Shown: positions 27,908-47,800 of the stretch, piece by piece
How the letters are laid out: each line of letters starts with the position of its first letter
Position numbering within the stretch: the stretch's first letter is position 1
IMG/VR virus record: IMGVR_UViG_3300037045_000347
Span: 1 to 50,922 of that record
Length of the DNA: 50,922 bases
From: a virus
Taxonomy: Duplodnaviria > Caudoviricetes
Reading direction: 5' to 3' (one strand)
The notes under the pieces: generated by a model
What the model was told of the DNA's origin: nothing
Seen by the model: only the letters and a program-made list of their open reading frames with translations
The model's database searches: none
Position numbers and translations under genes: made by a program

Positions 27908-27945
27908 AAAGTGCTTACCACATAAGCACTTTATTGGTAAATTTG
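27908..27945 (+). promoter_or_regulatory. Putative late promoter of the lysis cassette
   Basis: AAAGTGCTTA-ccaca-TAAGCACTTT (perfect arms), then TAAATTTG at 27938-27945. Confidence 0.7.
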
Positions 27946-27963
27946 CGATAAATTTCTAATGGC

Positions 27964-28248: not shown

Positions 28249-28251
28249 ATT

Positions 28252-29072: not shown

Positions 29073-29623
29073 GGATTACAAAGCTGATGATAGTTAACAT
29101 ACTGTTGTTGAGTGCATGTTCTGTTCACCGGAAACCTTCACAAATTATTTCAAAACTAAGTTCAGGGGAAACTGAGCTGGTAAGGAATATTAGTGTTGAC
29201 TCTGTTATTACTTTATTAAAAGCAGAGAATATCGCTACAGAACAAAGTTCGACTCACAACAATGAATTGATTTCCATAGTTCGGGAATATGATACCGAAA
29301 AACCTGTTTCTGAAATTACTGGTACCCCACCTATCAGAAAAGAGTCCATCACAGCTTCTCTAAGCGAATTAAATTCGCAGCTAAACAATACCCATCAAAT
29401 ATACTCAACTGGTTCTACAAGTAATTCAAAATCCTTTGATGAGCATATTAGAAACAGTTACAATATTGATAGCCTGGTAAAAGTTGAAGTTGCTAGCGTA
29501 TTTTCAAAAAAGAGAGATTATTGTTTTTCATTTATTGTTTTGATTGCCATTGTTGTTTTGTTTTTTTCATTTCGAAATAACATCCATAGGTTGTTTCAAT
29601 TTTTAATCAAAAAGTTGTATTGA
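29063..29623 (+). CDS. Candidate unimolecular spanin-like lipoprotein
   Basis: Lipobox LLLSA-C, Ser/Thr-rich middle, C-terminal TM followed by basic residues; last gene of the lysis cassette. Confidence 0.6.
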   Translation: MDLRITKLMIVNILLLSACSVHRKPSQIISKLSSGETELVRNISVDSVITLLKAENIATEQSSTHNNELISIVREYDTEKPVSEITGTPPIRKESITASLSELNSQLNNTHQIYSTGSTSNSKSFDEHIRNSYNIDSLVKVEVASVFSKKRDYCFSFIVLIAIVVLFFSFRNNIHRLFQFLIKKLY

Positions 29624-29643
29624 CAGATTAGTTTGCAATCTTG

Positions 29644-29678
29644 CAGAGCCTTCGTTGAGAAACGAGGGCTTTGTTTTT
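29644..29678 (+). terminator. Rho-independent terminator after the lysis cassette
   Basis: CAGAGCCTTCGTT-gaga-AACGAGGGCTTTG followed by T5. Confidence 0.8.
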
Positions 29679-29697
29679 AATATGCAGTATGTCAATC

Positions 29698-29780
29698 AGT
29701 TAAACAATATTAAACCACCAGTTAACCAACTGTAAAAGTATTGACAATACAAATATACTAAAGTAAGTTTGCTTTATAAT
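29698..29780 (+). promoter_or_regulatory. Promoter with conserved upstream box (copy 2)
   Basis: AGTTAAACAA at 29698, TTG at 29741, GTAAGTTTG at 29763, ATAAT at 29776; same offsets as the copy at 509. Confidence 0.65.
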
Positions 29781-29804
29781 TAAATAACAGTAAATCAAAT
29801 AGAT

Positions 29805-30212
29805 ATGAGCTTAATAACTAAAAATAAAGAAATCGAATTACTTCTCAACCTACTCGAAGGTAATGGTTACTTCGCAGATAAATTCGGAAAAGATATTCCG
29901 GTGATGATTGAAAACATCAAAAAGGATTATCCGATAGAAAACGGAACCTCAATCATAGCAGACGAAGTTAAGCACATTCGGGAGAAGGAACAGCTTCTTC
30001 AAAATTACGAGAATGAAAACCGCCAGTTGAAGAAAGAACACGAAACCAAGCTTCAGGAACTGTATATCTTCTTTCTAAAATGCGATGATGAAAAGATGTA
30101 CAACAAAGTAGTAGCTGATTTAGGAATTGAAAAAACCATAAAGCTCAAACATCAGCACCAACTTCCTTTTACCGAGAGTGAAATCAATTACATGGTCAAC
30201 AATTTAAAGTAA
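29805..30212 (+). CDS. Hypothetical coiled-coil phage protein
   Basis: 135-aa ORF directly after the promoter. Confidence 0.75.
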   Translation: MSLITKNKEIELLLNLLEGNGYFADKFGKDIPVMIENIKKDYPIENGTSIIADEVKHIREKEQLLQNYENENRQLKKEHETKLQELYIFFLKCDDEKMYNKVVADLGIEKTIKLKHQHQLPFTESEINYMVNNLK

Positions 30213-30218
30213 TCCAAT

Positions 30219-30407
30219 ATGCAACTTTTTAAAGTATACGCAAAGGTCTCATTGCAGGGAACACTGCTTTATAACTCCTACTACTTAGTCCGGGCCGAAA
30301 GCAAACAGAAAGCCAGGGAGAAAGCAAAAGAAATAGCATGGATTGAGCATGCACCTTCAATGCAATCTAAACTTTCAGTTAAAACATCATTTAGTGAACT
30401 TCAATAA
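30219..30407 (+). CDS. Small hypothetical phage protein
   Basis: 62 aa; VRAESKQKAREKA resembles the V.A.s.eeA motif of small phage proteins. Confidence 0.65.
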   Translation: MQLFKVYAKVSLQGTLLYNSYYLVRAESKQKAREKAKEIAWIEHAPSMQSKLSVKTSFSELQ

Positions 30408-30437
30408 TTATCAATACTAATTTTAAATACAACAGTT

Positions 30438-30893
30438 ATGACATTCTACAAAAGCGCAATGCCCGAGATTTCAATCAAATACAAAACGGGGAGCATTAAA
30501 AAAGCATTAGTTTCAAGTTCACAAGAACTCTTTAAGATTTTTAGAGAGATGTTCGATCAGGACACCATCGAGTATAACGAAAGTATGGTTGTCTTATACA
30601 TGAACAATGGGAACAAAACTTTAGGTTGGACCAGGCATTCATCCGGAGGTATGGCACATACAGTTTTAGATATAAAAATAGTTTTAACAGAAGCACTTTT
30701 GTGTGGTGCATCCACCATTGCAATTTGCCACAATCACCCTTCATGTCAGTTATTTCCAAGCAAAGAAGATGAGAATATAACTAAGCGTCTCAAAAATGCA
30801 TGTGAAATCATGCAAATGCGATTACTAGATCATATCATAGTCCCGGGAGATTTAAACGGTTATTATTCATTTTGCGACGAAGGAAAAATCTAA
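30438..30893 (+). CDS. Stand-alone JAB/MPN-domain (RadC-like) protein
   Basis: HNHPS...PSKED and LLDHII JAMM motif; no N-terminal HhH region. Confidence 0.9.
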   Translation: MTFYKSAMPEISIKYKTGSIKKALVSSSQELFKIFREMFDQDTIEYNESMVVLYMNNGNKTLGWTRHSSGGMAHTVLDIKIVLTEALLCGASTIAICHNHPSCQLFPSKEDENITKRLKNACEIMQMRLLDHIIVPGDLNGYYSFCDEGKI

Positions 30894-30911
30894 TCAATAA
30901 AATATCAGGTT

Positions 30912-32024
30912 ATGAAACTTATAGTTCACAATTTCACACCAAACGGGCTGCAAAAAGCGCAGCCCTTAAATGAACTTCCAATTGGAATGAAAGTGTATGC
31001 TTATGGAGCATTCGGTTCAGAAAGTATTTACTGTATTACCGGCCCAATGACAAAACGTGGGCAGGAGATGTGTTTGATTTCCCGCTGGAATCCTAATGCT
31101 TACTTTGCCAGTCCCAAAGATTATCTTGAAACATACAGTAAGCCTGTTTCTAAAAAGTTCGGAATTGGTTACTACTGGGATGATGTCGATAACCATATCT
31201 TCCCTGAATCACGAGTAAAAGCAGCTATCAGGCGTGCTGAATGGATAGAGAGGAAGATTGCCCAAATGAATGAAGAAAAACAACTGGCAGAGCAGAAGGA
31301 GTTTGCAGAACTACCGGGCCGCTATCCTCACTTAACACCGATACCAAATGATTGTAAGGATCGGTACAGGGCAGTCAAGGCAAACATTGTCGCTGAGTTG
31401 AAGCATCACTTTCCCGATCATAAGTTTTCAGTGAACAAAGATGGTGACAGGTCTATCAGAATTAGCTGGTACGATGGATTACTGAGTGAAAAGGTAGATG
31501 ACGTTATGCGCAAGTTTGAAAGCCATAAAAGTGATGTTACAGGCGACTATTGGGATTTTTCACCTTCCTGTTTCAATACTATTTTCGGAGGAATGAAATT
31601 CGTATTCATTAATCGGTACATGTCGGATGAAGTGAAGAAACTCACCAAGCAGCTTAAAGAAATTCTTCCTGACAGGTATAAGGCAGTCGACCAGCAGCTA
31701 CTTCGGGAATACTGGTCAGAAACCGATTTCCCCTTCAATGCTACCAACATAAAGGTAGTAGAAAATCCGGATGCCAAAGGTATCGATGATTTATTCACTT
31801 TTCATTACGACATTCCGGAAAAGCTTACTTCTGTTGCTTCTCCCGAAGGAATAAAAGTCGTAGAATACTCACCAAAAAGCTTTGCTGTAATCGGAGATAC
31901 AAAGCCCTTAAAAGACAAATTAAAAGCCCTCGGAGGCAAGTTTAACTTCCGGCTTACATGCGGAGCTGGATGGATTTTCCCAAACACCATAAAAGAAAAC
32001 GTATTAGAAGCATTACAGTTATGA
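30912..32024 (+). CDS. Multidomain mobile-element protein, LPD29-like
   Basis: NIVAELKHHFPDHKFSV...ISWYDG...FGGMKFVFINR core; C-terminal YSPKSFAVIGDTKPLKDKLKALGGKFN...GWIF module. Confidence 0.65.
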   Translation: MKLIVHNFTPNGLQKAQPLNELPIGMKVYAYGAFGSESIYCITGPMTKRGQEMCLISRWNPNAYFASPKDYLETYSKPVSKKFGIGYYWDDVDNHIFPESRVKAAIRRAEWIERKIAQMNEEKQLAEQKEFAELPGRYPHLTPIPNDCKDRYRAVKANIVAELKHHFPDHKFSVNKDGDRSIRISWYDGLLSEKVDDVMRKFESHKSDVTGDYWDFSPSCFNTIFGGMKFVFINRYMSDEVKKLTKQLKEILPDRYKAVDQQLLREYWSETDFPFNATNIKVVENPDAKGIDDLFTFHYDIPEKLTSVASPEGIKVVEYSPKSFAVIGDTKPLKDKLKALGGKFNFRLTCGAGWIFPNTIKENVLEALQL

Positions 32025-32311
32025 AAGAATTCATCAAAGAAAAGCTGGTTGAAATGTACTCAACCTGCACTACAGACCAGTACGGTCAGGTAGCAAAGTA
32101 TAACCAAGGTCTTAAAGGTTTATTCGGAGATAAAACCGAAGAAGTGTTGGAATACATCAAAACCGACCCGGTGATAAGTTACTCAACCTATGGAAATCGA
32201 TATGGCACCTATAAGGCAGTAATGGACATCCTCGATGAGGAAATAAAAAGTGCTTGTGTTGATGCCCTGAGAAGCAATTTGAACTATCAACGTAATATGA
32301 GGAGCTGGTAA
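32021..32311 (+). CDS. Hypothetical phage protein
   Basis: Start reassigned to ATG 32021 (ATGA overlap with previous stop). Confidence 0.7.
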   Translation: MKEFIKEKLVEMYSTCTTDQYGQVAKYNQGLKGLFGDKTEEVLEYIKTDPVISYSTYGNRYGTYKAVMDILDEEIKSACVDALRSNLNYQRNMRSW

Positions 32312-32313
32312 TC

Positions 32314-32484
32314 ATGACAAAGACCAGGCAAGCCGAAATAACGCTCTACAGCAACGGTTACATCATCGAGTATGTAATCTCTCCCAGAGGAAAGAAATTG
32401 GCAGTAGCTGTCAAAGATGAAAAGCGAACCTATGGAACCACAGTGTTGGAACTGGTGAAAAAGCTGAATTTAATCACTCATTAA
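32314..32484 (+). CDS. 56-aa hypothetical protein (absent from the ORF track)
   Basis: MTKTRQAEITLYSNGYIIEY...LNLITH exactly fills the gap between neighbours. Confidence 0.65.
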   Translation: MTKTRQAEITLYSNGYIIEYVISPRGKKLAVAVKDEKRTYGTTVLELVKKLNLITH

Positions 32485-32493
32485 AACAAAGTT

Positions 32494-32697
32494 ATGTTAG
32501 CAAACAGACGAGACCTTCGCAAACTAAAATCAATCTCCGGAATGGCAGGCAAACTTCGGTCTGCCTACACCGGACTTTCTCAACCCACAAAAGAAATGCT
32601 TCAACGGGAGTTTCGGGGTGGAACTGAAAACCATATTTTCCGGTTTGAAGCGAACATAAATCAAGTAGTTGAATCTATTAAATTACCAAAACCATGA
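32494..32697 (+). CDS. Small basic hypothetical phage protein
   Basis: 67 aa, GTTATG start context shared with neighbours. Confidence 0.65.
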   Translation: MLANRRDLRKLKSISGMAGKLRSAYTGLSQPTKEMLQREFRGGTENHIFRFEANINQVVESIKLPKP

Positions 32698-32873
32698 AAG
32701 TACGTTGTGAAATTTGCAGGGATTTATACATCCTTTCCAATGAAGAAGAAGCCCTTTTTGAAGAGGGGCTTCTTGAAATCAGGATCTGTCCGGATTGTGA
32801 GGAATACGAGGAAATGAGACCGGATGATATTTGTGAGTATACGTCGTATTCGGATGCAGATAGTGGGTTATAG
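32694..32873 (+). CDS. 59-aa acidic zinc-ribbon protein (absent from the ORF track)
   Basis: ATGA overlap; CEIC...CPDC; ends YSDADSGL; followed by a terminator. Confidence 0.75.
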   Translation: MKVRCEICRDLYILSNEEEALFEEGLLEIRICPDCEEYEEMRPDDICEYTSYSDADSGL

Positions 32874-32903
32874 GCAAATTCTAAAGAAATTATAAACAAA
32901 TAT

Positions 32904-32935
32904 AAAATCCCCGATTGTAAAAGTCGGGGATTTTT
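32904..32935 (+). terminator. Rho-independent terminator
   Basis: AAAATCCCCGATT-gtaaa-AGTCGGGGATTTT hairpin with T run. Confidence 0.85.
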
Positions 32936-32982
32936 GTATTTTTGTCCAGATATTAAATATTAACTAAAAAACTTGAATATGT

Positions 32983-34282: not shown

Positions 34283-35386
34283 ATGTATTTAAAAGCCAAA
34301 AAAATGAAAACACAGCCCGAAAAAGATTACGAAATGTCGGAAGATGATTTAATTAATCAAATGATTAACAGTGCTCAATTAGATGAGGTGTCTGAGGATG
34401 TGGATTATTGGGAAAAAGCCTATTTGGAATCTATGATAGATGCACAACGAGAAGATGCTATGATAGAAGCTCATCTTGAAGCACAGTTCGAAGATAACAT
34501 ATTAGAAGCTCAATTTGAATCTCAGTTAGAAGATGCCATGATTGAGGCTTATTTAGACTCACAGTTTGAAGATGCAATGTTATATCGGGGATATACAGCC
34601 GATTCAAAAGAAAGTCAATTTTACTTATACGACAATAATTTTGAAACAAGTGTTGTACCCAAATTTGAGCCTAATGAAAATATAATTTTCGCAATTTACA
34701 AAAAATTTTGTAAGACATCCGGATCCGGTAAGACAGCATACTTTGAGTATAAAGTTCTTGATAAAAATAAAAGTGAAATACCACTTGTAATTGATGCTTA
34801 CAGATGTAATGGTGCTGATGAAGAACATTGGGTTTCGTGGAAATACTCAGATGATCAGAGAGTTGAAGTTAATCATTACGTTCGCGAATTAACAGGGAGT
34901 CAGGGAGCGCTATATTATCCATTTGAGTATAATTATGCGAAATTAATTGCACTTAATAAGCTTAATCCTTGTAATTTTCATTTTCAGAAGCTTGATTTTT
35001 TTGTTAAAGACAATGCTGTTAATTGTGGTGATAAATTTTCTACATGTAAAATTGAATCATCTACTAATTATCAAAATTTTTACATGAAAGATTTTGCATT
35101 GGACATAGTTAACTTTATGAAATCAGCAACAAAGTATTCATCTTTAAATGAATTCATTTTGGTTTCAATGCTTCGAATTGCAGTGGATCATCTTGAAAAA
35201 TTAGAGTTCATTAGCAATAGTTATAAAGAACAGTCTATAAAAAATATAATTATTTTTACTGATGAGTTGGTTGAAGCACGTTTGAGATATATTAAAAATC
35301 AGGTAAAACTTGATTCTGAGTCAGAGTTGAATCTTTTGTTGGAAAAATATGAATTGATAAAATATCGGGGTATCGGGGCTTCTTAA
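34283..35386 (+). CDS. Hypothetical protein with N-terminal acidic 13-aa repeats
   Basis: 367-aa AT-rich ORF; alternative start at 34304. Confidence 0.7.
   Translation: MYLKAKKMKTQPEKDYEMSEDDLINQMINSAQLDEVSEDVDYWEKAYLESMIDAQREDAMIEAHLEAQFEDNILEAQFESQLEDAMIEAYLDSQFEDAMLYRGYTADSKESQFYLYDNNFETSVVPKFEPNENIIFAIYKKFCKTSGSGKTAYFEYKVLDKNKSEIPLVIDAYRCNGADEEHWVSWKYSDDQRVEVNHYVRELTGSQGALYYPFEYNYAKLIALNKLNPCNFHFQKLDFFVKDNAVNCGDKFSTCKIESSTNYQNFYMKDFALDIVNFMKSATKYSSLNEFILVSMLRIAVDHLEKLEFISNSYKEQSIKNIIIFTDELVEARLRYIKNQVKLDSESELNLLLEKYELIKYRGIGAS
34451..34579 (+). repeat. Degenerate 39-bp coding tandem repeat (about 3.3 copies)
   Basis: Units begin GAAGAT at 34451, 34490, 34529, 34568: EDAMIEAHLEAQF / EDNILEAQFESQL / EDAMIEAYLDSQF / EDAM. 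Confidence 0.8.
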
Positions 35387-35773
35387 CAATTAGTTTCTTC
35401 ATTAGGAATTATACCTCGTATAATAATTTCCAATATTTCTCACTTCAGCTAAATTCTTATAATTTACATATTTAGCCTATTTGCTTTTGGTATATATTAT
35501 TTTCTGAAAACTCATTATCTATTTCAATTCGTTTTTATTGTCGGTAAAGTTAATTTTTTACGCTCTGTAATTGTCAAAAATGCCATTCAAACTGTCCGCT
35601 GTCCGAAAGTCGGGTGGTGGGTGGGCTTGGGATCGTGGGGCAAAATAAAATGTGCTGCAATTTGTGTCGGCTTGTGCGGTTGGTTGCAGCTCTTTTTATT
35701 TTGCGAAGGGTTGGCATTTTGTCTGTCGTTTTACTGTTCGTTTGTTGTCTGTTGTGTCGTCTTTTAGCATGAC

Positions 35774-35905
35774 CGGTAACGGTTGGCGTGTATGTGCAGT
35801 AGCGGATTAGAAGCACGTTCCTGTCCGTTTAGCACAAGATTTCTTAGAAGCATAGACCCTCGATTTACCACCTCACCCGCTATTGCCACATACACGCTGT
35901 TAGGG
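35774..35905 (-). repeat. attC-like recombination site 1 (132 bp)
   Basis: Minus strand CCCTAAC...GTTACCG; arms GCGTGTATGTG-G-CAATAGCGG / CCGCTACTG-CACATACACGC with one unpaired base; about 20 bp after the helicase stop. Confidence 0.8.
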
Positions 35906-35927
35906 CACCGTGCTTTTCGTTTTGTTT

Positions 35928-38900
35928 TCATGTTTGCTTAATTTGAACGTCAACAGCTACCTCTTCACAACGGACTTCATACTTCCGCTCTGGTTTTGAA
36001 TACACATTTACAGTTTGGTGGGAAGTAGCGAAGGAGTTGTCATAAATGTAGGTATCGCTGCCAAACATAATTTCCTCAATCTGGGTGGATTCGTAAACTG
36101 AGTGATTGTTAGGAGCATGGCGATAAATCAATCTTTCTATTTTCTTGATTTTATATAGGTTGTCAATATCCTGCGTGTTGTCGTCTGGCATTATGATGAA
36201 TAAATAATCTCTCGCCCGACTAATGGATACATTGAGGATGTTCTGCTTATTGAGAAACATACCAGGGTGTTTGCTTATCGAGTATGGCGGGTTAAAAATC
36301 GATATGATAATATCACATTCATCTCCTTGGAAGCCGTGAATAGTCCCGATAAGGATTTCTACCTTTTCAGTGTCTTCAAATTGTTGAGCAAGGAGCTTTT
36401 CAATTAGAGTAGCTTGAGCTTTGTAAGGACAAATGATTCCAATCCTGAATTTGTCTTTGTGGCTTGATTGAATCTGAAAAGCAAGTGACTGGGCGAACTC
36501 AACCGTGAACAAAGCTGAATAGACCTGATAGTTTGATTTATTAAGCGTATTTGGCTTGTAAATGCTTTCAAACTTTGCTACTGGAAATTTGATAATGTTA
36601 ATGTCCTTGAAATCAAAGCCGGATATGTTCAATGGCTTTTGCTCTGCACTTGTTCTATGGTGTTCGAGAATGCCATTGTAAGTGAAGTGACTGAAAACAT
36701 TTCCAATGGTGGGAACTGCCCTATATTGCTTGCGAAGGTTTACTATTTCAAATTCATGGGGAACAGTTGTTGGTTCTACGAATCTGTCAAGATTGACCAT
36801 GCTGTAGATATTCATATCCTTCCAATGGTCAATAAGCGTAATTGGTTGAATCTGGAACGGATCTCCTGCAATTACGAATTTTGCATCTGGCTTTTGATAA
36901 AGGACGTAAGCTATACTGGCCAAGTTCACCATTGAAGCTTCATCAATGATAATGTAGTCCCATTCAAGAAATTTCAGGTGTAGTCGTTCATCATGGATTT
37001 CGGGCTGAAAATAGTCGTAAGCAAATCTTGCAATTGTGGTTATTGTAGTATTCTTGGGCTTGGTTCTAATATCGAACGCTTTATCAATTACAACTGAACT
37101 GTTTTCCAGTGATTCATCACTTGTATTTCCAAAGCGGAGAAGCCAATGGTGATAGGTTTCATCATCACCCATTTTTTCAATAATACGCTTTGTAAGAACG
37201 TCTGCTGATTTATTGGTTGGAGTAAGTACAAGCACTTTGAGGTTTTCTTCCTGCTGCATGAGAGGTATAATCTCATTGGTTGCCAAATAGGTTGTTTTAC
37301 CCGTACCGGGAGGGCCAAATATGAATCGAATATCCTCTGGAAGGTTTTGCTGTAGATTATAATCATCCTCAAAGCCAAGTTGATTGAAGGCCTTTCTAAG
37401 TTCTTCAAGGATGAAAACAGGATTCTTTATGTCAATGACTATTCGGTTTACCTTAGATAGGTCAATCTCTGAAATGTCGGCAGACTTTTTCAGCTTTGCC
37501 CGAAGGGTATATTCTTTAACACTCACAACCTCCACGGTTACGGTCTTGGATTCTTCACCATGATATAAGCGAATTTGCAGGTCTCCAATATCCTCAATGG
37601 ATTGAGGGATATATCTGTTCGGATGCTTGAGAATCAATGTCCGTTCTGTACCTGGTTCTTTTTCTGCTTTAGTGAATTGGATTGATATTTCCTTTCCTTG
37701 AGTATTTGATTCTGAACTACTCAGATATTCCAGTTCAAGCAAAGCTTTGAACCAAGCATAGGAATACATTTCAGATTCATTAACAATCTCGTTCAGTTTC
37801 TCAATTCGGGTAAGGTCTTCAATTTGAGCTTCTGTCTGTTCCTTTAGCTTGTCAATCTTCTTTTGAAGGTCAACCGAAGGTTTTGTGTATTCATCCTGAT
37901 CTGCCATTGATTCAGGAGATTCCTGCTCTTCTTTTTGAGTTTCTTCATCTTGATTTTCAGCTCTGGCCTTTCGCTTCTTTTTGATCCCCTTTTTAAGGCG
38001 GTCTAAGGTGTCTTCAATGGCATCATCCATGAAGTCTTCTTCTTCATCAGTATTGGGATTGCCCTGAGCACTTGCGGACTTCTTTTTAGCCTTTATCATG
38101 CTCAATGCCTCTGCTAATTCTTCTTCAGTGATTCCTTCCTCTTGTAGTTTTTTGCCAAGTAGGTAAGCTGCTCGCTGTTCCTCAGAGAGGTCTAATTCAT
38201 CTTCAGGGTTTTCGATTCCTAAAAATTCAAGGAATGCAGAAATGTCAAAATCCTGCGAAGTATAGATTTCGTTCAAGTATTCTCTTTGAATTTCTGATGC
38301 TGATTTTAAATTGCCCTCTGTATCATATAGCCATTTATCATTTTTGAGAATAGATGATAGTGTGGATTCAAATTTTTGGGACTTTTGATATTGGTTCCAT
38401 TTGGGGACGTATCGAAAGTTGCCCATGATGCTTGATTCGAGAGAGTAAGAAGACTTACCGTGTACATGGAATAACATGTACTCCCAAATCAGGGCTGATA
38501 GTTCGGGATTGATGTTTGATACAGCTTCCTCTATACCTTCCAGAATGGTATCTGTAATAGTTTGATTAGAGACATAGGTTTGTGATACTTCAATTTCTTC
38601 AAGACCAAATCTTTCCTTGTTTTCGTAGTTGGATTCTAACTCCCTATCTAACATACGAGGTTGATTGCTGCAACCTAAAGCCGAAAGAAATGAATAGAAC
38701 GAGCTTTTACGAGGACTATGGATAAAGTCCAAGTAGTAATCTTCATCTAAAATATAGACCTCCTTTGCGTGAGCAAAGTATTTGTTGAGCTTTTCACTTG
38801 GAATGTAAACGGACTCAGGAAAGCAAAAGTAAACTGTATCAGGCTCAATGGCTTTTCGGGTTGCTATGAAACAAGTCTCTTGGAGTTTATCGAGATAGTC

Positions 38901-40778
38901 ACTTTGGAGAGAAGCCGGGCAAGCATCATAGTAGGATAAGAAAGAATCAAAGTGGGCTAAGATTTTGTCCTTATCATCATAGTTAAATCCGTCCTTGTAT
39001 TGCGGAATTATGGTCTTGAAGATTTCAGCTCGTAAGTCGGGTTTGCCAATACCCAAACCTTTGAAGAAGTCCAGGGCTTCTTCATCCTCTGTAAATGGTT
39101 TGTAAATGGTATCGTAGCTTGTTGCCCTTTCAGAAGGCAGAAAAATATTAGGTGCTGTTAAATCATCATTGAAAGGTACAACGGCCTTTCTGTATTGGTT
39201 TAGCAGGATTGGTCGCTTTTGAGCAAGCTTCTCTTTATCGTCCCAAAGGGATTTTCTTCCTCCCAAATAACCATAGAATTTCAATAACCATTCATCTGAT
39301 TGTGCTTCCATGAAAGAAGCATCAATTCTCCTCAGAAGTTTTTTAGGGTCTAAGGTGTCGTTAATGATTGAATTGATATAGCTTTCTAAGGTCTTATTCG
39401 CTTGGTTAAGTTGCTTCTGTCCCTTGCTTACGAACACCAATCCTGAATCAGGGTTGCCAATTAGCTTGCTGATTTGTTGGTCGGAAAAGAGTTCTGCTAA
39501 CTCGGGATCTGATGCCCAATATGACTTTGCAGTTTTGTAGTACTTTCCATTTCTGCCAGGCAGTAATTGGTCGGCTTGAAACTTCTTTAGGATTTCGGTG
39601 TAGAAGGGTTTGAATGAAATTTTTGCTTTACTACCTACGTCTGAAAAATCACTTTCCTTGTATGGAATCAGTTCTAAAATACTGTCGTTGAGTAGGTAGG
39701 TTTTATCCCTTTCACCAATGGTTTTGAGTATCGGTAAAGAATTGGCAGCAAGCTTTGCCGCAAGCTGCATGATTTCCACATTCCATTGCTCACCTGCTTT
39801 TATTCCCTCTCTACTATCTGTCAAAAGGAAAGGGGCCTGAATAACAAAGCCTAACTTGGTTTCTTCTTTGGTTGGAAAGAAGCAAAATGCTTCATAGGTA
39901 TATCCGGTTTCCAGTTCCTTTTGATCGAGAACAAAGAAACCTACATAGATGCGGTGGTGGGATTTAAGCTGCTTGTGTGAAACGCCAGTAGAAAATAACC
40001 AAATCAATTCTTTTTTATTGACTTCATTTTCTACGCTTTCAACCTCCATTAACTCAGCTCGGATATTGTCGAACTGTTCTGTTTTTAATGCTTGCTTTGA
40101 ATAGATGCCTTCTTTATCATTTGATTTCCAAGTTATCTTTTGAAGATTGGTAAGGAATAAAATAGGTTGAAAGAGTGAATCTAATTTGTCCTCAATCTCG
40201 GTATAGGCATCTTCTGGCGACTTTGAAATGTGATTAAAAGGGAAGTAGAAAACTGTTTCACCTGCTGCCCTCTGGCCATTCAAGGATTCAATTTCATTGG
40301 GTACTATGTAGTTTTCCAGTTTGAAGTTGAAATTATCATCATAAATGTGCGGAGACATGCTGTAAGCAAAAACCGCTTTGAAGCCTATTCCAAACTTTCC
40401 GATTTTTTGTTCATCAATCTTGGTTGAATTGCCAATGGAAGTAATGGCGTTTATATGACCAAGGTTGCCAGTTTCTGAATCTTCATCTTCATTGTCCGGG
40501 TCTGATATAGAGAAGCGAACAGAGCCATTGTGCTTAAACCAAAGTCCGTCTTCTTCAAGGCGAAAATCAACCCAAGTGGCTTTTGTATCATCTGCGTTCT
40601 GCAGCAATTCATAAACGAAGTGGGCACTGTCGGAATACTTCTTAATTGCTGTTTCCCAAATTCCACGGTACGCCTTTTTAAGCAAGACTTCCACGTCTCT
40701 TTGCTTAATCTCCTGTAGCCTGGTTAAAAATTGTTTCTCTGTTGCCATATCAAAACGGGTCAATGCTAGTTGTTTCAA
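35928..40778 (-). CDS. Sacsin/NO VEIN-like GHKL ATPase fused to a UPF1/DNA2-type SF1 helicase
   Basis: N-terminal YELLQNADD, HNG, GKFGIGFKAVF; C-terminal GPPGTGKT, IIDEAS, GDPFQ, QYR, CPYKAQ, TIHGFQG, NVSISRAR; start TTG 40778 or ATG 40748. Confidence 0.88.
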   Translation of the reverse strand: MKQLALTRFDMATEKQFLTRLQEIKQRDVEVLLKKAYRGIWETAIKKYSDSAHFVYELLQNADDTKATWVDFRLEEDGLWFKHNGSVRFSISDPDNEDEDSETGNLGHINAITSIGNSTKIDEQKIGKFGIGFKAVFAYSMSPHIYDDNFNFKLENYIVPNEIESLNGQRAAGETVFYFPFNHISKSPEDAYTEIEDKLDSLFQPILFLTNLQKITWKSNDKEGIYSKQALKTEQFDNIRAELMEVESVENEVNKKELIWLFSTGVSHKQLKSHHRIYVGFFVLDQKELETGYTYEAFCFFPTKEETKLGFVIQAPFLLTDSREGIKAGEQWNVEIMQLAAKLAANSLPILKTIGERDKTYLLNDSILELIPYKESDFSDVGSKAKISFKPFYTEILKKFQADQLLPGRNGKYYKTAKSYWASDPELAELFSDQQISKLIGNPDSGLVFVSKGQKQLNQANKTLESYINSIINDTLDPKKLLRRIDASFMEAQSDEWLLKFYGYLGGRKSLWDDKEKLAQKRPILLNQYRKAVVPFNDDLTAPNIFLPSERATSYDTIYKPFTEDEEALDFFKGLGIGKPDLRAEIFKTIIPQYKDGFNYDDKDKILAHFDSFLSYYDACPASLQSDYLDKLQETCFIATRKAIEPDTVYFCFPESVYIPSEKLNKYFAHAKEVYILDEDYYLDFIHSPRKSSFYSFLSALGCSNQPRMLDRELESNYENKERFGLEEIEVSQTYVSNQTITDTILEGIEEAVSNINPELSALIWEYMLFHVHGKSSYSLESSIMGNFRYVPKWNQYQKSQKFESTLSSILKNDKWLYDTEGNLKSASEIQREYLNEIYTSQDFDISAFLEFLGIENPEDELDLSEEQRAAYLLGKKLQEEGITEEELAEALSMIKAKKKSASAQGNPNTDEEEDFMDDAIEDTLDRLKKGIKKKRKARAENQDEETQKEEQESPESMADQDEYTKPSVDLQKKIDKLKEQTEAQIEDLTRIEKLNEIVNESEMYSYAWFKALLELEYLSSSESNTQGKEISIQFTKAEKEPGTERTLILKHPNRYIPQSIEDIGDLQIRLYHGEESKTVTVEVVSVKEYTLRAKLKKSADISEIDLSKVNRIVIDIKNPVFILEELRKAFNQLGFEDDYNLQQNLPEDIRFIFGPPGTGKTTYLATNEIIPLMQQEENLKVLVLTPTNKSADVLTKRIIEKMGDDETYHHWLLRFGNTSDESLENSSVVIDKAFDIRTKPKNTTITTIARFAYDYFQPEIHDERLHLKFLEWDYIIIDEASMVNLASIAYVLYQKPDAKFVIAGDPFQIQPITLIDHWKDMNIYSMVNLDRFVEPTTVPHEFEIVNLRKQYRAVPTIGNVFSHFTYNGILEHHRTSAEQKPLNISGFDFKDINIIKFPVAKFESIYKPNTLNKSNYQVYSALFTVEFAQSLAFQIQSSHKDKFRIGIICPYKAQATLIEKLLAQQFEDTEKVEILIGTIHGFQGDECDIIISIFNPPYSISKHPGMFLNKQNILNVSISRARDYLFIIMPDDNTQDIDNLYKIKKIERLIYRHAPNNHSVYESTQIEEIMFGSDTYIYDNSFATSHQTVNVYSKPERKYEVRCEEVAVDVQIKQT

Positions 40779-43537
40779 ACTTTCAAATCACTTACTGAGC
40801 CAACTACACGGTAATTCACATGATCTATCACTTCAAAGTGCTTCTCTGCACATGTTATCTTCAATCGCTCGCTATCTCTTAATAAGGTGCGGTCTTTTGC
40901 TGCTTTAGGGTCTTTGGTTTCAGCTACAAAGTAGATTTTGGTTTCTTCACCATCCTCTTTCTTAATTAATGCCCAATCAGGATTGTATGGACCAATTGGA
41001 GTTTTGACCACAAATGTTCTTGGAAGCTTTACATAGAAAAGTATATCATCCCTGCTTTCGCAATCTTCGGCAAACCTACGTTCCGGTGAACTGAGGGAAT
41101 CAATGGCCACATAGTTGTAAAGCGTTTTGGCTTGTTTCTTAACCTCTATCAGGTTTTCCAAATACTGCTCGATTTCTGCGGATTCGAACAACTTCATTTC
41201 ATAGACCTGTCCGGCAATCTTTTCATATTGGATACCATTGATCTTGATGCGGTCAAATTCATGTTTTATGATGCGTACCACGCTATCCATGAATAACTGA
41301 GGGTTGTTGAAGATTTCGCCCAATCGGTTTGAGTTCAATACGATTTGGGTAATGGTATCTCGGGTAAGCTCTGTTTTAGACTGGATATAAGCAATGAAAT
41401 CAGGGATTTCATAATTGGTGTCTTTTACCATTTTCTCCTTTGAGCCTTTCTGCTCTCCGCCTAATTCTATCAGCTTGCCTTTGGCATCTCTAACGAATTT
41501 TGCTACATTCTTTTCACGGTAGATTACAGGACGTTCGATAGGGGGCATTGCTTGCAATGCAGCCACACAATTTGCAATTAGCTCTTCGGTGCTGTAATCA
41601 ACTTTATATTCTGTTTTGGCTCTTATTTTCTCCCAAAGCTCAAGGAATAGCGCATCCTCCATCCATTTGTTTTTGAGTTTTACGCTTGTTCTTGCTCTTG
41701 CATTTTTGATACGGCCTTCGAACTTCACGCCACAATCTTCCTCTATTTCCTTTTGTAAGGCTTTAGAGAATGATTCATAGGCTTCATTGGCGATGACAGT
41801 AAGCCTATTGATAGCACGGTCAAGGTTTCTTGCTCCGGTTTGGTCAACGCATAAGCGGAGACCTCTCCCGATTTCCTGGCGTTTCTTAATATCCGACTTG
41901 GTTTCGTTAAGCGTACAGATTTGGAATACATTGGGATTGTCCCAACCTTCACGCAATGCGGAGTGACTGAAAATGAAACGGAGCGGTACTTTTTCATCTA
42001 ACAACCTTTCCTTATCACGCATGATTAGGTTGAAGGTATCATCATCTGCTTTTGTGGTTTTGGCCTCTTTGGTGTCTTTGTATTTACCTGCTTTATCTTG
42101 GCTGAAATATCCATCATGTACGTCTTTAGCTTTGAAGCTCATTAAACCCCTGTAAGCAGGCATATTCTGCCATTTGGTATAGCTTTCTTCAAACCATTCG
42201 GCAAACTTCCCCTGTATGGTGTTTCCGCTATCATCATATTCACGATAATTGGCTACACGGTCGATAAAAAAGATTGATAATACCTTGATTCCTTTGCCCT
42301 GCAACTCTTTCTCTTTCTTGAAGTGGTTCTCTACCGTGGCATCTACCATTTCCTTAAGTATCTGGTCGGTTAGACCTCCCACGGCTTGACCCTGATAGAC
42401 AATTTGACCACTTGAAAACTCAATGAACTGATTGTCGGCATCTACCTCATTGATTACATAGCCGTCTTTGTATATGTCCCAATTTTTAGAAAGCTTGTAA
42501 AGGTCGTCTCCAACATTTGCGGAAACCTGTTTCTTCTGTAAGCCTGTTTTTTCATTGACAAATATTGAAACCTTGGCAGTTACTGATTTCTTAGCCATAT
42601 GGAAACCATCTACACTGATAAAGGCTCCTGAACTATCGTTTCGGGCTACAACGGAATCAACCTCAATTTGCTTTACCAAGCCTAAATCATACGCCTTCAC
42701 CGGGTCAAGCTTGTAGACCAGGTTGTAAAGGTTTTTGTGAGTTGCAGAATACCTCAGTGTAAATAGGGGATTGAGATTGGCAATAGCTCGCTTTCGGATA
42801 TCCGTTTCCATATTCTGCGGCTCGTCTATAATCACGATCGGATTGGATTTCTGAATATATTCTATAGGCTTTATGCCTGATTCTCTTACCTGATTGATGA
42901 CGTTGGCATCTTTGGTGAAGGAATCAATATTGATTACTAAAATTTGAATGGCGTTGCTTTTGGCAAAATTGCCCAAGTCTGACAAACGGCCTGAATCATA
43001 CAACTTGTAATCCGCAGGTTGATTTTCATAGATTTCCTGAAAGTGATCGAAGGTGATTTGGAGAGATTTGATAACCCCTTCACGAATAGCCACGGAAGGA
43101 ACTACAATTACAAACTTCTTAAAGCCATACACTTTGTTGAGTTCGTAAATGGAACGGAGATACACATAGGTTTTTCCCGTTCCGGTTTCCATTTCTACGG
43201 AATAATTAGGAAACTCGGTTACTACTGATTTACCTTCCAGAACACCTTTTATGGATGCATCTTCATTGTACCAAAGCTTTTCAATGACAGGCGAGATTTC
43301 GTCTTCTCTTAGCTCATTTTCTCTTTGAACTTTATTGAGATTTGTTAGCAACTCTTCTTCCGTAAGTGCAAGATTGTTGCCCACACCTGCCTCGGTGAAC
43401 TTAATACTGCCGCTATTGGTATCAGCCATAGAGAACTCAAAATCTGAATTGCTCAAAGGCTGGCCGTCAAACAAGTCAATAACTGATTGAATGGCTTGAA
43501 GCTGGTATTCTTGGTTTTTATCGAACTGTAGTTTCAT
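40775..43537 (-). CDS. res: Type III restriction-modification enzyme, restriction subunit
   Basis: METGTGKTYVY, IIDEPQ, RYSATH, SALREGWDNPNVFQIC, QEIGRGLR and C-terminal YNPDWA...VAETK nuclease. Confidence 0.95.
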   Translation of the reverse strand: MKLQFDKNQEYQLQAIQSVIDLFDGQPLSNSDFEFSMADTNSGSIKFTEAGVGNNLALTEEELLTNLNKVQRENELREDEISPVIEKLWYNEDASIKGVLEGKSVVTEFPNYSVEMETGTGKTYVYLRSIYELNKVYGFKKFVIVVPSVAIREGVIKSLQITFDHFQEIYENQPADYKLYDSGRLSDLGNFAKSNAIQILVINIDSFTKDANVINQVRESGIKPIEYIQKSNPIVIIDEPQNMETDIRKRAIANLNPLFTLRYSATHKNLYNLVYKLDPVKAYDLGLVKQIEVDSVVARNDSSGAFISVDGFHMAKKSVTAKVSIFVNEKTGLQKKQVSANVGDDLYKLSKNWDIYKDGYVINEVDADNQFIEFSSGQIVYQGQAVGGLTDQILKEMVDATVENHFKKEKELQGKGIKVLSIFFIDRVANYREYDDSGNTIQGKFAEWFEESYTKWQNMPAYRGLMSFKAKDVHDGYFSQDKAGKYKDTKEAKTTKADDDTFNLIMRDKERLLDEKVPLRFIFSHSALREGWDNPNVFQICTLNETKSDIKKRQEIGRGLRLCVDQTGARNLDRAINRLTVIANEAYESFSKALQKEIEEDCGVKFEGRIKNARARTSVKLKNKWMEDALFLELWEKIRAKTEYKVDYSTEELIANCVAALQAMPPIERPVIYREKNVAKFVRDAKGKLIELGGEQKGSKEKMVKDTNYEIPDFIAYIQSKTELTRDTITQIVLNSNRLGEIFNNPQLFMDSVVRIIKHEFDRIKINGIQYEKIAGQVYEMKLFESAEIEQYLENLIEVKKQAKTLYNYVAIDSLSSPERRFAEDCESRDDILFYVKLPRTFVVKTPIGPYNPDWALIKKEDGEETKIYFVAETKDPKAAKDRTLLRDSERLKITCAEKHFEVIDHVNYRVVGSVSDLKV

Positions 43538-43551
43538 ACTTAATTCAATTT

Positions 43552-44316
43552 TTAAGAGTTTGTCGAAGTAACTCCCTTAATTAGTTTGTAAATTTCATTA
43601 CAATCAAGTGCACGACTAAAGGGTATAACTCTGTAAGTGGATTCAACCTCAACCTCGCTTACTTCATCTTCTGGAATTAAATTCTTTTCAATGGCAATTG
43701 CATCATTGGCCATCATTTCCCATGTAGCTCCTCCGGTTAAATAAACAGTAAATCCGTCCCGTTTATATTCTGTCAAAAAGCTTATGGGACTGGGTACATG
43801 ATACAATGTCCTTAAATAGAAGTCTTTTTGAATCTCATCAGGTTTGTAGTTGTTTTTATATGGGCCAAGAATATCGAACTCGTAATTTTTACTACAAATG
43901 GCAAACTCTACACCGTTGCGTGGGAAAGACGAACGCACTTCAATGGTTTTGTTTAGATGAAGGGTTTCTAGGTCAACTTGGTTAGTTGCGCTCGTATAAT
44001 CTGTTTCCTTCACTAAAAGATTTAGAGAAACAGTATTTAAAAAGTTTTTCCAGCAATATTCGGCTAGAACACCTGCAATTCCATTACTGAGCTTTCTATC
44101 CTTATTTCGTGAAGTAGTTGATGCATTTGCCGCTTTATCGTTTACCGAATTAGCAAGCAATTCACCAGCTTCAGTGATTTTATTTAGAACTGTTTTATCA
44201 AATAGTTCAGATTGATAATAGAACTGATATTTTGCAATGAAAAAAGGCCTTATTCGCTTTGAGTCCGAATATGACGCAATCCTCTGGCATTCAATTTTTT
44301 CAACGGTTACCTTCAT
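43552..44316 (-). CDS. Hypothetical protein, PD-(D/E)XK restriction-endonuclease-like
   Basis: GVLAE helix, VDL and TIEVRSS pattern; inserted between mod and res. Confidence 0.55.
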   Translation of the reverse strand: MKVTVEKIECQRIASYSDSKRIRPFFIAKYQFYYQSELFDKTVLNKITEAGELLANSVNDKAANASTTSRNKDRKLSNGIAGVLAEYCWKNFLNTVSLNLLVKETDYTSATNQVDLETLHLNKTIEVRSSFPRNGVEFAICSKNYEFDILGPYKNNYKPDEIQKDFYLRTLYHVPSPISFLTEYKRDGFTVYLTGGATWEMMANDAIAIEKNLIPEDEVSEVEVESTYRVIPFSRALDCNEIYKLIKGVTSTNS

Positions 44317-44325
44317 GCGTTTTGA

Positions 44326-46221
44326 TTAGATTGATTGGAATGAAATGCCTACTTGCTCCAACTTTAAAATAGTATTTGTTTTCAGGCTGTCCTCACCTTT
44401 AAATAATCTGTCCAAACAAATCACATGTCGAGGCTTTAATTCTATAATCTTTTGTTGTACCTCCATAGAAAATGCTTCAAGAACAAAAACTAATTTTCGG
44501 GTGGGGATATGAAAAATGGTAGTTGAGGAAACCACGATTTCATTAATCGTTTCAGTTAATCCAATGCCATTCTTTATTGATAATTCCCAAAGCATATTTA
44601 TAGACTCCTTTGCTTCGGTGTGTTGATCTTGAAATAGTTTGGTTTGGCTTACCAAATCTTGTTCTGATTTAATTAAGTCGCTTCTCCATATTCTAAAGTT
44701 TGAATCAGAAAGTTTAAAAAAGCGGAATCCTAAGGAGGTTGTGTTTTGATTGAAATTTAAGGCTCCCTGTCTTTTTTCTTCTATCGACTTTATTACGTCC
44801 TTAATTCTCGTCCTTGTAATATCAGAAATAACCCTATGACCTTTTTGATAAGCTTCTTCTTTTGGATCAATTTGTTCTGGAAGTTGAATTGAAATGAATT
44901 TAAGGTTTGAATCTTTTTCTTCATTATATTCTAAAACCGCATGTGCAGTAGAGCCACTTCCGGCAAAGAAATCAAGTACGGTGCCCTCTGTTGAATCACC
45001 AAAAGCAATCTCAAGCAATAACTTGATTAGATCAGGATTCTTTGGGTTATTGAAGGGTATTTCAAAACCTTGTGGGGACTTAGACGCAAAAATATCTTGC
45101 CATAATGTATTTCTAAGGATCTTATCATTTGGTGCAATCCAGTGTTCAACACCTTGATTTAATCCCTTGCCTTCCGGCTTACGCCTAATAAACTTTTTGT
45201 TTGATCCTGTACTTTGCCAGTATTCTTCGAGAGTCATTTTAGAGGCAAACTTTTCTTCGTACTCTTGATAGTTCTTAACTGCTTCTTGTGCAACGTCCTC
45301 TTTCCACTTCCACTGACCTTTTTCGATAGACACACCTAAAAGTTCATACTGCATTGTTTTTCTTTCAGCATCATTCCAAAAGCCTTTCCAGTAACCTTCA
45401 GATTTACGTTTTTCGGAAGCCTCTCTGAATACCGGGTTCATCCTTGTTGATGCGGATTTTGAATAGATCAAAACGTACTCAGCACCTGTATTGAATGATT
45501 TTAGGCCTTCGGAGAGAAATTGAGTATTGATATTCTTATCATATCGTCTAACAAGTAGAATGTTTCTGAAATTTTCTTCTCCGAAAATTTCATCCATTAG
45601 AAGTTTTAAAGAAGAAAGCTCGTTGTCATCTATGGAAACAAATATTAGTCCGTCCTCATGCAATAGATTTCTTCCTAAAATTAAACGTGGCAGCATCATT
45701 GAAAGCCAATTTGAGTGAAATTGGCCATTCTCTTTTCTATTTGGACGAAATAAGCCCTCTTTGGTCATATACCCTTCTTCATCTTTCTCACCTACACGGA
45801 GGAGGTATTCTTCTTTAGATTCAGTGAATTTATCAGGATAAATAAAGTTGTCCGAACCTGTATTGTATGGAGGGTCTATGTATATAGCGTTAATCTGACC
45901 ATAGTAGGATTTCTGCAAAACTTTAAGTGTCTCTAGATTTTCTCCTTCAATCAAAATATGTTCAGCATTATTCCATTTGGTTGATTCTTTTATAAAAGGT
46001 TTTAGGGTTGAGGTTGTGGGAACTTGCAATAATTTGTATGCATCCGTTTTCCCTGCCCAATTCAGTTGATACCTTTCAGAATCGGTATTGATGCTTTCAC
46101 CCAAAATCTGCTTGAGTTGTTCCACATTGATTTTGTCTTCGGTAAAGGCACCTGGAATGATTTCCTTCAATTTGGAGATAAGGTCTTCCGTAATATTCAA
46201 AGATTTGCCGTCCATGCTCAT
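44326..46221 (-). CDS. mod: Type III restriction-modification enzyme, methyltransferase subunit
   Basis: IYIDPPYNTG (motif IV) before LDFFAGSGSTAHA (motif I), beta order; HSNWLSMM; upstream of res. Confidence 0.95.
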   Translation of the reverse strand: MSMDGKSLNITEDLISKLKEIIPGAFTEDKINVEQLKQILGESINTDSERYQLNWAGKTDAYKLLQVPTTSTLKPFIKESTKWNNAEHILIEGENLETLKVLQKSYYGQINAIYIDPPYNTGSDNFIYPDKFTESKEEYLLRVGEKDEEGYMTKEGLFRPNRKENGQFHSNWLSMMLPRLILGRNLLHEDGLIFVSIDDNELSSLKLLMDEIFGEENFRNILLVRRYDKNINTQFLSEGLKSFNTGAEYVLIYSKSASTRMNPVFREASEKRKSEGYWKGFWNDAERKTMQYELLGVSIEKGQWKWKEDVAQEAVKNYQEYEEKFASKMTLEEYWQSTGSNKKFIRRKPEGKGLNQGVEHWIAPNDKILRNTLWQDIFASKSPQGFEIPFNNPKNPDLIKLLLEIAFGDSTEGTVLDFFAGSGSTAHAVLEYNEEKDSNLKFISIQLPEQIDPKEEAYQKGHRVISDITRTRIKDVIKSIEEKRQGALNFNQNTTSLGFRFFKLSDSNFRIWRSDLIKSEQDLVSQTKLFQDQHTEAKESINMLWELSIKNGIGLTETINEIVVSSTTIFHIPTRKLVFVLEAFSMEVQQKIIELKPRHVICLDRLFKGEDSLKTNTILKLEQVGISFQSI

Positions 46222-46280
46222 TTATTTCTTAGTGTTTTCTTATATTAATATCGTTCCTCAAATGCAGTATCTAGCATGTG

Positions 46281-46412
46281 CCCTAACGGTTTGGCGCTTG
46301 GCGCAGTGGCGGATTTCGGAGCACAAAACTGTCAATACACCACAAAAGTTGATGCGAGGTAGAATGTTCAATTAACCACGTCACCCGCCATTGCGGCAAA
46401 CGGCTGTTAGCG
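46281..46412 (-). repeat. attC-like recombination site 2 (132 bp)
   Basis: Minus strand CGCTAAC...GTTAGGG; arms CGCAATGGCGG / CCGCCACTGCG; same length and shared internal blocks with site 1. Confidence 0.8.
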
Positions 46413-47332
46413 GTAGGTTTTCTTTTCTGTCGTTGTGTTTCGATTATTATCATATACAGTAGTGCCAAGTTGTTGTGTCTTTAGAACCTCTAATAATTCT
46501 AAATTGTCCGTTACCGTTAAATGCTACAATTAAATAGTTTCCCCTTTGCCAAAATCCTTTTGCAACTGCAAGAACATTGTTCCAGTTCTTGTTCAGAAGT
46601 GGTTGGTGGTCTGTTGGATTTGGATGTCCAGGCGAAGTAAATTCTTGCTTACTTGTCCCAGTTACATTAGTCCACGATGAAATTTCAAAACTCCCTTTAG
46701 AAATGGAATTTTTTAGTCCAACTGCATAAGCTGGAGTAAGCCCTTGGTAATAACTACTTACTGCCCAAGTTGTCCGTGTAGCGTTGTATGGACTTGTGCC
46801 TCTTGTCAATGCGTTTTGAATAGGAAAAATGAATACGTTATCGTATGGTGTCGTTGGATTAACAAATTCAGCAGCCATTGCATCTAAGTCATCAGGTAAA
46901 AGTCTTGATGAGTTTGGGGGACTAACTTCATTTAATGTTTCTCCATTTTGTGATTCTGATAAACCGTCAAATATTGCAGATTCAATCAAGTCAGCTACAT
47001 TATTGTCTGTCGGTAAGTTATGTGCAAGAATAATCCATTCAACATCTTCATTATTATTCCAAATGTCTAATATACGAATGACTTTACTGCTCATTTGCTT
47101 AAACGGCATTGAAGAATTTATGCAATTGTCTGCTTCATTAAAGTGTTCAAATACTCTGTCATTTATTCCTTGTCCAACATAAAATATTTTTCCGTCCCTC
47201 GGGTCACGCAATGCGTAAACATATTTCCCAAGTTTTTCTTTTTGTAAAATGTCAAAAGTCCGCTGACTATTCATTTCTTTTTTTTATTGTCTGTCACTTA
47301 TTGTTTGAACTGTCTGTTAAACTTACCGCTAA
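46287..47332 (-). mobile_element. Integron-like single-gene cassette, 1046 bp
   Basis: AAACTTACCGCTAAC (47319-47333) and GTTAGCGGTAGGTTT (46406-46420) are reverse complements at 14/15 positions. Confidence 0.75.
46450..47274 (-). CDS. GIY-YIG nuclease-family protein (LEM-3/Ankle1-like)
   Basis: YVYALRDPRDGKIFYVGQG...RVFEH...LIESAI...TLN. Confidence 0.85.
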   Translation of the reverse strand: MNSQRTFDILQKEKLGKYVYALRDPRDGKIFYVGQGINDRVFEHFNEADNCINSSMPFKQMSSKVIRILDIWNNNEDVEWIILAHNLPTDNNVADLIESAIFDGLSESQNGETLNEVSPPNSSRLLPDDLDAMAAEFVNPTTPYDNVFIFPIQNALTRGTSPYNATRTTWAVSSYYQGLTPAYAVGLKNSISKGSFEISSWTNVTGTSKQEFTSPGHPNPTDHQPLLNKNWNNVLAVAKGFWQRGNYLIVAFNGNGQFRIIRGSKDTTTWHYCI

Positions 47333-47370
47333 CATCTCTGTATGCGAAGCCTAAATTTTATATGCGAAGC
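47327..47370 (-). other. attI-like site at the head of the cassette array
   Basis: Core GTTAGCG (minus) has no partner hairpin upstream; instead an exact 10-bp direct repeat TATGCGAAGC at 47341 and 47361. Confidence 0.5.
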
Positions 47371-47800
47371 TCGATTTCGGGTATATTGGCCTTATGAGTC
47401 GAGCCTGAAAGTGCAAACTATTGTAAATTAATATGATGTATAAATTTAGTTTGAAATTATCATTTCGTATACAAGATTTCATAATTAGTTGAAAATTGGG
47501 AGTTAATTTTAATATTTCATATTCATCATAAATAGTTTCTACCAAAGTAACCTGTCAAAAATTGTTTACTTCTTTCTATGTTCATTTATGGTCTGTTTGT
47601 CGTTGTGTTGTCGTCTTTTTACACATGTTGTCACTGTGTTTATAGCCTCTACTCAAATTACTGAACCTTTATTGCAACAGTTTCGATTCATCATTCTATT
47701 TTTATTTCTTTAACTCCCCAAAATTACAAATTATTCCGGTAGCTTGTACCAGTTGAATAAACAATTTTGTACATTTGCCAATAGTATAAACACTAATACT

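Follow-up and report, generated by a model that had tools for sequence, protein, structure and literature searches.

Two integron-like cassettes in a Bacteroidota provirus record, the larger probably made from the operon of an integrative element

The window analysed here is the whole 50.9-kb record IMGVR_UViG_3300037045_000347 (50,922 nucleotides; provirus class, Bacteroidota), in which two adjoining minus-strand segments with predicted anti-phage genes each end in an attC-like hairpin. We consider it probable that they are a recombinase-less, two-cassette piece of a Bacteroidota integron-like system and that the larger, 10.5-kb cassette was made recently from the restriction-helicase operon of an integrative element; confidence in the cassette system is higher than in the capture story. 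Cassette 1 (46287..47332; 1,046 bp), whose limits are homology ends in metagenome loci, holds one gene for a 274-residue GIY-YIG nuclease (46450..47274), predicted to be PD-T4-3-like (Pfam PF22945, E 5.7e-11; PADLOC PD-T4-3, E 9.4e-21, residues 7-208). Cassette 2 (35780..46286; 10,507 bp) holds four: Mod, a 631-residue type III methyltransferase (44326..46221; PADLOC MTase_III, E 1.2e-151); ORF254 (43552..44316), which matches no Pfam or PADLOC family and for which a T4 endonuclease IV-like nuclease (atlas score 0.92, rank 28) is a weak lead; Res, a 920-residue type III restriction subunit (40775..43537; PADLOC REase_III, E 3.2e-282); and a 1,605-residue protein joining a sacsin-type ATPase domain to an SF1 helicase (35928..40745), hereafter the helicase. 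By these labels Mod and Res form a type III restriction-modification pair sharing one predicted operon; the match of the helicase to TmtA, the Tiamat protein (E 1.1e-56), covers residues 37-820, the N-terminal half only, and the C-terminal SF1 part matches Mokosh models in PADLOC. The hidden Markov model labels bear out the defence-type cargo proposed in an earlier, sequence-only reading, and its statement that the record lacks an integrase was upheld by both a scan of 34 window open reading frames (ORFs) and tblastn, neither of which found a tyrosine recombinase.

The hairpin sites, site A at the end of the large cassette (35774..35905) and site B at the end of the small one (46281..46412), are each 132 bp long, TAAC and GTTA being separated by 118 bp in both (35777/35899 and 46284/46406), and each directly follows a minus-strand stop codon, as had been described. 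The putative crossover falls between G35780 and T35779 in site A and between G46287 and T46286 in site B. The cores at the two ends of each segment match, at 10/10 for the large cassette (35899-35908 vs. 46278-46287) and 14/15 for the small one (46406-46420 vs. 47319-47333), whereas the two ends of each site match at only 6/10, again as the sequence-only reading had it. Among 3,466 cross-locus core pairs of the site family, used as an empirical null, matches of 10/10 occurred in 0.7% and of at least 9/10 in 4.3%, and the core 10-mer of the large cassette had no match of at least 9/10 to any other among 122 cores. Core matches of at least 9/10 were found for 4 of 61 within-site pairs vs. 22 of 37 adjacent-site pairs of other arrays, some of which skip sites missed by the heuristic site finder; the same finder called one site in a shuffled window and one likely false site at 11450. 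Global alignment of site A with site B scored 120, compared with a mean of 23.5 (standard deviation 10.3) for 1,000 random window segments, the maximum of which (162) most likely came from a segment overlapping a site. Single window sites fold modestly (z -0.04 to -2.0), site A keeps a long paired stem, and an Rfam search of the sites, a different test from the IntegronFinder covariance model, gave no hits. The third boundary, at 47333, is a half site only.

Relatives of the GIY-YIG gene were found at 10 metagenome loci, five of which (L005, L006, L007, L011, and L012) match the window through the hairpin and stop at 46284-46285. Upstream, homology starts at 47333 in L005 and L007 and at 47341 in L006, L011 and L012 being cut by contig ends; the neighbours of the small cassette vary among loci wherever contigs show them, and L009 has matched cassette ends with a shorter site. 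Because homology runs through the hairpin and stops at the downstream core, the hairpin body is read as staying with the upstream gene, with an integron-like crossover at the downstream G|TT. The cassette architecture, G|TT crossover, and junctions predicted by the sequence-only reading thus found their counterpart in homology breaks at the core in 5/10 loci and in the matched ends; its claim of mobility is supported for the small cassette, the only one of the two seen in other contexts. Loose contig ends also cluster at 46282-46284 and 35900-35902 in runs from four studies, the ends of the large cassette having been examined in four runs only; missing coverage of the small cassette in these runs carries no weight. 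Searches of other collections were largely negative: the GIY-YIG search of 401 genomes returned one relative, at 48%, with no site in its visible flanks; the head region (47325-47500) matched 1 of 301 genomes, weakly and uninformatively; site B had no match in the phage collection; and in viral contigs no GIY-YIG or Res relative was confirmed and exact-pattern scans for the site, head, and tail motifs gave zero matches each.

Comparison of the sites by subtype (with the L007 and L011 rows left out, here and for target duplication) showed site B to be a mosaic, its first 22 nt being of the L005 type and the remainder identical at 102/104 positions to another subtype. The site in L006 is also a mosaic, crossed over within the hairpin body. 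Because site B is a hybrid, homologous recombination inside hairpin bodies is a likely second shuffling route besides the main one, and the earlier view of the junctions as recombinase products is qualified to that extent, in that not every junction here need be recombinase-made.

Site B matched 55 of 251 Bacteroidota genomes by BLAST, and 20 regions around chosen matches contained 1-12 sites each by the heuristic finder, many with matched cassette ends. Of the 71 sites of 116-121 nt, 61 were oriented and 42 of these aligned. In the 42-site alignment, 17 of 22 pairs change on both sides (the structure being drawn from the same sequences), and pairing is present in 92% of alignment cells compared with 29-42% when partners are slid. 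The fold of the family comprises a 4-bp core, a 1-by-5 internal loop, and an 18-pair stem with a conserved T.G pair; structure is conserved with little sequence conservation, as is expected of attC-type sites. The 1-by-5 loop and the conserved wobble may take the place of the L boxes whose extrahelical bases favour the bottom strand in integron attC sites. As the sequence-only reading had noted for the window, the cores deviate from GTTRRRY, which only 5 of the 61 oriented sites fit; standard attC models may, as it suggested, miss the family. In the sample, the other matched cassettes bounded by 116-121-nt sites measure 0.7-2.9 kb, and those whose sites differ in length reach at most 5.5 kb.

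A tyrosine recombinase encoded on the cassette strand heads arrays in G048, G021, G158, G071, G124, and G188. All four of the array-head recombinases scanned against TIGR02249 score 196-212 bits (cut-off 265), and one aligned to VchIntIA (2A3V) in two pieces with a gap of 21 vs. 63 residues, and is thus ∼42 residues shorter at the IntI insertion; its alignment to XerA has no large gap. A structure model has an extra N-terminal alpha/beta domain of ∼60 residues (predicted template modelling score, pTM, 0.45) and XerA and 2A3V as top matches, and the NCBI label of these proteins is “site-specific tyrosine recombinase/integron integrase.” The “IntI-like” of the sequence-only reading therefore holds only in part: the tyrosine recombinase that heads arrays of this site family in other genomes is non-canonical, without the IntI insertion, below the TIGR02249 cut-off, and co-oriented with the cassettes. 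In a survey scoring at most eight candidates per genome, the family was present in 21/251 genomes, and site matches occurred in 15 of these 21 vs. 40 of the 230 others (Fisher p 4.6e-7). In 18 of 21 loci, a conserved attI-like GTT site, chosen by motif and by visual inspection, follows the recombinase stop codon at a distance of 66-112 bp. The six bases before GTT were identical in none of 1,037 attI-attC pairs; with no common overlap sequence of attI and attC, a double-strand Xer-type exchange was ruled out as unlikely, and a single strand exchange fits. Elsewhere, attI-like sites head genes without a recombinase directly upstream (L009:2067-2136, 16.5 bits; L002:16565-16634, 7.3 bits). At the head of the window array (47333..47400), a GTT core is accompanied by an attI-like box at the right spacing and by a direct repeat, with a weak score on the attI model (-2.5 bits vs. 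7.1-20.3 for held-out attI sites and at most -5.6 for hairpin ends; 15th of 868 window GTT sites); this head site may be a degenerate attI, a decayed attC/hairpin, or a secondary site.

The account of the large cassette given by the sequence-only reading missed a near-identical copy of the operon outside any cassette, in G453, the sole genome of 351 searched that encodes the helicase at 99% identity. The G453 and window copies of Res and helicase form an ungapped alignment of 7,611 bp with 96.7% identity. The G453 operon lies within an element that adjoins mnmE and carries an Arm-type integrase and primase-like genes; Mod is preceded there by an XRE-HTH gene, the helicase is followed by a pAgo gene, and no hairpin site was found across 44 kb. 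The shared block (35934..46238; 10,305 bp) has sharp ends. Upstream, homology sets in abruptly at 46238 and is perfect for its first 77 nt. The initial 17 nt (46222..46238) reproduce the final codons and the stop codon of the XRE-HTH gene that lies before Mod in G453; nothing else of this gene occurs in the window, where the scrap is preceded by a 48-nt cassette leader (46239..46286) with no match in G453 or other fetched loci. Downstream, homology ends just before the native helicase stop, and the cassette tail (35899..35933) extends the helicase gene by one codon, provides it with a different stop codon, and has at its end the core that is complementary to the leader. In run X7 the whole block, including the Mod and ORF254 alleles of the window, is present at ∼97%, with loose ends departing at 46238 and 35934 into G453-like flanks. 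Because the G453 twin sits in a site-free element and its homology ends at the regulator 3′ end and before the stop, the giant cassette is likely a recently captured operon fitted with cassette ends, and the orphan scrap of the regulator gene suggests that capture went from element to cassette. G453 itself is best regarded as a relative of the donor, not the donor, because its Mod allele and middle gene differ. More distant comparisons gave only 66-73% matches for the large-cassette DNA in 401 genomes, and the restriction-modification relatives at ∼70% identity (L002, L003) are not bounded by hairpin sites. A remnant regulator ORF in the leader was considered and rejected, an in-frame stop lying just upstream. 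The pAgo gene that follows the helicase in G453 (L118:674-2773) is absent from the cassette and belongs to a cluster of 93 members.

Taken together, excision and insertion of the cassettes at G|TT are probably the work of a tyrosine recombinase whose gene lies elsewhere and which would act in trans. Following the established geometry of tyrosine recombinases, the folded bottom strand would be cut once, at AA|C, and a single exchange with crossover in the downstream core would leave a junction resolved by replication, by analogy with integrons. The operon would have been captured at the DNA level from the integrative element, being trimmed to its first ribosome-binding site and last codon and acquiring leader, tail, and hairpin; the size of the cassette argues against copying from a single-gene transcript. 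To the fuller proposal, that this is a newborn and still mobile 10.5-kb cassette and that a recombinase without the IntI insertion turns a whole four-gene defence operon into a cassette by such capture, we give roughly even chances.

Several observations weigh against this account. On the side of capture, the first 670 nt of G453 Mod share only ∼76% identity, and another gene takes the place of ORF254 there; helicase C-termini vary among relatives, which weakens the argument from the replaced stop; searches, which included genomes and viral contigs, yielded no further copy of the large cassette complete with its ends; and no circles or empty sites were seen in the four runs examined, which do not cover the flanks. 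On the side of the cassette system, 4 of the 10 GIY-YIG loci have no intact site (L008, L010, L014) or a collapsed one (L013); only 34 of 61 sites fold better on the bottom strand, a weak excess (p 0.04); and the hybrid origin of site B breaks 2 of 10 outer-stem pairs. As to the recombinase, none for the window array was found within the 50.9-kb record, 40 of the 55 site-matching genomes have no recombinase match at E 1e-90, and the head site lies below every held-out attI in score.

In one alternative the system is real and the 10.5-kb unit is not a mobile cassette, an integrative element or its operon having landed in an older small cassette and been trimmed by two deletions to a fossil too long to recombine. 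We judge this unlikely. The absence of a second copy with these ends, the smaller size of the other matched cassettes, and decay on both flanks of the array agree with it, as does the statement of the Darracq preprint (10.1101/2024.07.02.601686) that long cassettes recombine poorly. Two deletions would, however, have had to break at most 17 nt from the first start codon and at the final stop codon, leave no further element sequence, and yield a leader and tail of ordinary cassette length, and the long paired stem of site A is retained.

The simpler view that these are ordinary integron cassettes moved by canonical IntI, the window array being a plain CALIN (attC sites clustered with no integron integrase present), is improbable. 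The AAC/GTT triplets, the crossover position, and the polarity are those of integrons, and the linked recombinase still matches 2A3V and TIGR02249; but all four scored array-head recombinases fall under the cut-off, the one fully aligned is short at the IntI insertion, and GTTRRRY fits few cores. The IntegronFinder 2 preprint, moreover, gives very few complete integrons in the group.

Still less probable are dispersed repetitive extragenic palindromic (REP)-like or miniature inverted-repeat transposable element (MITE)-like repeats shuffled by homologous recombination between copies. The hairpin body is indeed a high-copy repeat, with a depth of 4,761 vs. ∼5 on genes in run X4, and the mosaics in site B and the L006 site are of the kind such shuffling would leave. 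Against this, the body accompanies the gene upstream of it, homology breaks off at G|TT, the segment-specific end matches are far above the null, and a dedicated recombinase and attI-like site stand at array heads. A MITE with target duplication was rejected, there being no duplication and insertion being tied to the neighbouring gene, so that this alternative is largely refuted; the sequence-only reading had named target duplication without cassette-end complementarity as what would speak for a repeat element, and the opposite was found. That the large cassette is an assembly chimera is scarcely credible: the exact Mod, ORF254, Res, and GIY-YIG proteins are recorded from one contig only, but both junctions consist of unique sequence, and a chimera would not produce 10/10-matched ends whose core recurs nowhere else among 122.

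Arrays of the site family elsewhere showed further features. Short sites of 71-75 nt alternate with 118-nt sites in G080 (L067:4364-9897), with a repeated unit of ∼354 bp between, and several opposite-strand ORFs of 324 residues break the array in G124 (L052, L053), the one scanned being an IS110 transposase. Plasmid NZ_CP041688.1 (L125:1100-17075) bears a complete system with recombinase, attI-like site, and array, together with 134-136-nt palindromic inserts at cores, a group II intron, and IS110. On plasmid NZ_CP040909.1 (L126:5075-8681), an lnu(H) cassette with 10/10 matched ends and a 118-nt site is followed by a cassette with 9/10 ends carrying mph(G)-mef(C) in reverse orientation. Six plasmids of Vibrio, Photobacterium, and Shewanella match the mef(C)-mph(G) cassette (L126:6196-8560) at 99.7-99.9%, the match reaching as far as the TAAC core of the cassette, which hints that their mef(C)-mph(G) came from a Bacteroidota cassette. 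The first cassette behind attI in G158 (L073:852-1634) encodes a protein 94% identical to Lnu(H), and a leader similar to that of this cassette follows attI in G006 and G248 (L085, L097).

In the prophage part of the record, structural genes occupy 1-18.5 kb and a CHAP-domain gene 28.5-29.1 kb. A related prophage (L122) is 89% identical over 27237-32957; the match stops at 32957, and L122 itself ends short of the place of the array and so offers no empty site. An 8-kb minus-strand island (18807-27014) separates the tail from the lysis genes, with a two-component pair and lipoprotein-like genes, where L122 has different genes, and a 367-residue orphan ORF contains a 39-nt tandem repeat in three copies (34450-34582). 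At the downstream edge of the array, 35740..35779 looks like the remaining leader of one more cassette, the third, which is gene-less or decayed; it matches a cassette leader of L060 at 83% over 41 nt. Next comes a GC-richer non-coding stretch (35570-35740) that is partly common to a contig of run X1, which rejoins at 35777, and for which no plasmid match was found. Upstream of the head site, a stretch resembling a cassette leader (47590-47640) suggests another decayed cassette.

What is new here is the pairing of the donor-type operon of G453 with the giant cassette. The cassette and its 97% identical counterpart outside any cassette permit a base-by-base comparison, with base-level breakpoints, and this makes testable the question of how integron cassettes are created, which Cury 2016 (PMC4889954) states to be unknown; if the capture story is true, the large block is a rare snapshot of the making of a new cassette. 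Complete integrons are reported to be very rare in the group, confined to Chlorobi, Ignavibacteriae, and Salinibacter in the IntegronFinder 2 preprint, yet a single site matches 55 of 251 genomes in a family whose recombinase is without the segment said to distinguish IntI. Sites of this family also flank lnu(H) and mef(C)-mph(G) on one plasmid, and the family may be an overlooked route of resistance gene movement. Judged by title and start of abstract, no paper found in the search describes this system, the bulk of subscription journals and supplements lying outside it.

Among known systems, CALIN and single attC sites lacking integron integrases (SALIN), as described in Cury 2016 and in the Loot preprint (10.1101/2022.09.11.507474), likewise have two or more attC-like sites, genes in a common orientation, no neighbouring integrase, and possible insertion at secondary sites, and attC-like sites without an integrase are what the 50.9-kb record contains. 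Unlike them, the present site family is tied to a non-IntI recombinase, and the 10.5-kb cassette exceeds the 4-kb default clustering distance of IntegronFinder. Defence cassettes of sedentary chromosomal integrons similarly carry predicted anti-phage genes; according to the Darracq preprint, however, such systems never have more than two components, with type II and IV restriction prevailing, whereas the present cassette has four genes over 10.5 kb and a type III system. In the integration of CTXphi by XerCD, as outlined in PMC4792948, a recombinase without an I2-like domain also acts on a folded single strand, but there host XerCD is borrowed at one site, whereas here a dedicated recombinase heads many-cassette arrays. 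Canonical integrons (IntI1, VchIntIA/2A3V) share with the present system the G|TT crossover, the gene-plus-hairpin cassette, an attI beside the integrase, and close kinship of recombinase sequence and fold. They differ in that here the attI lies behind the integrase stop codon, a 1-by-5 loop adjoins the core, the T.G pair is conserved, few cores fit GTTRRRY, and the recombinase carries the extra N-terminal domain and is without the ∼35-residue domain near patch III that Cury 2016 gives as the hallmark of IntI; the same source mentions some Treponema integrases co-oriented with their cassettes. The array thus works in the manner of integron cassettes but fails the IntI test, and is a variant of the integron kind.

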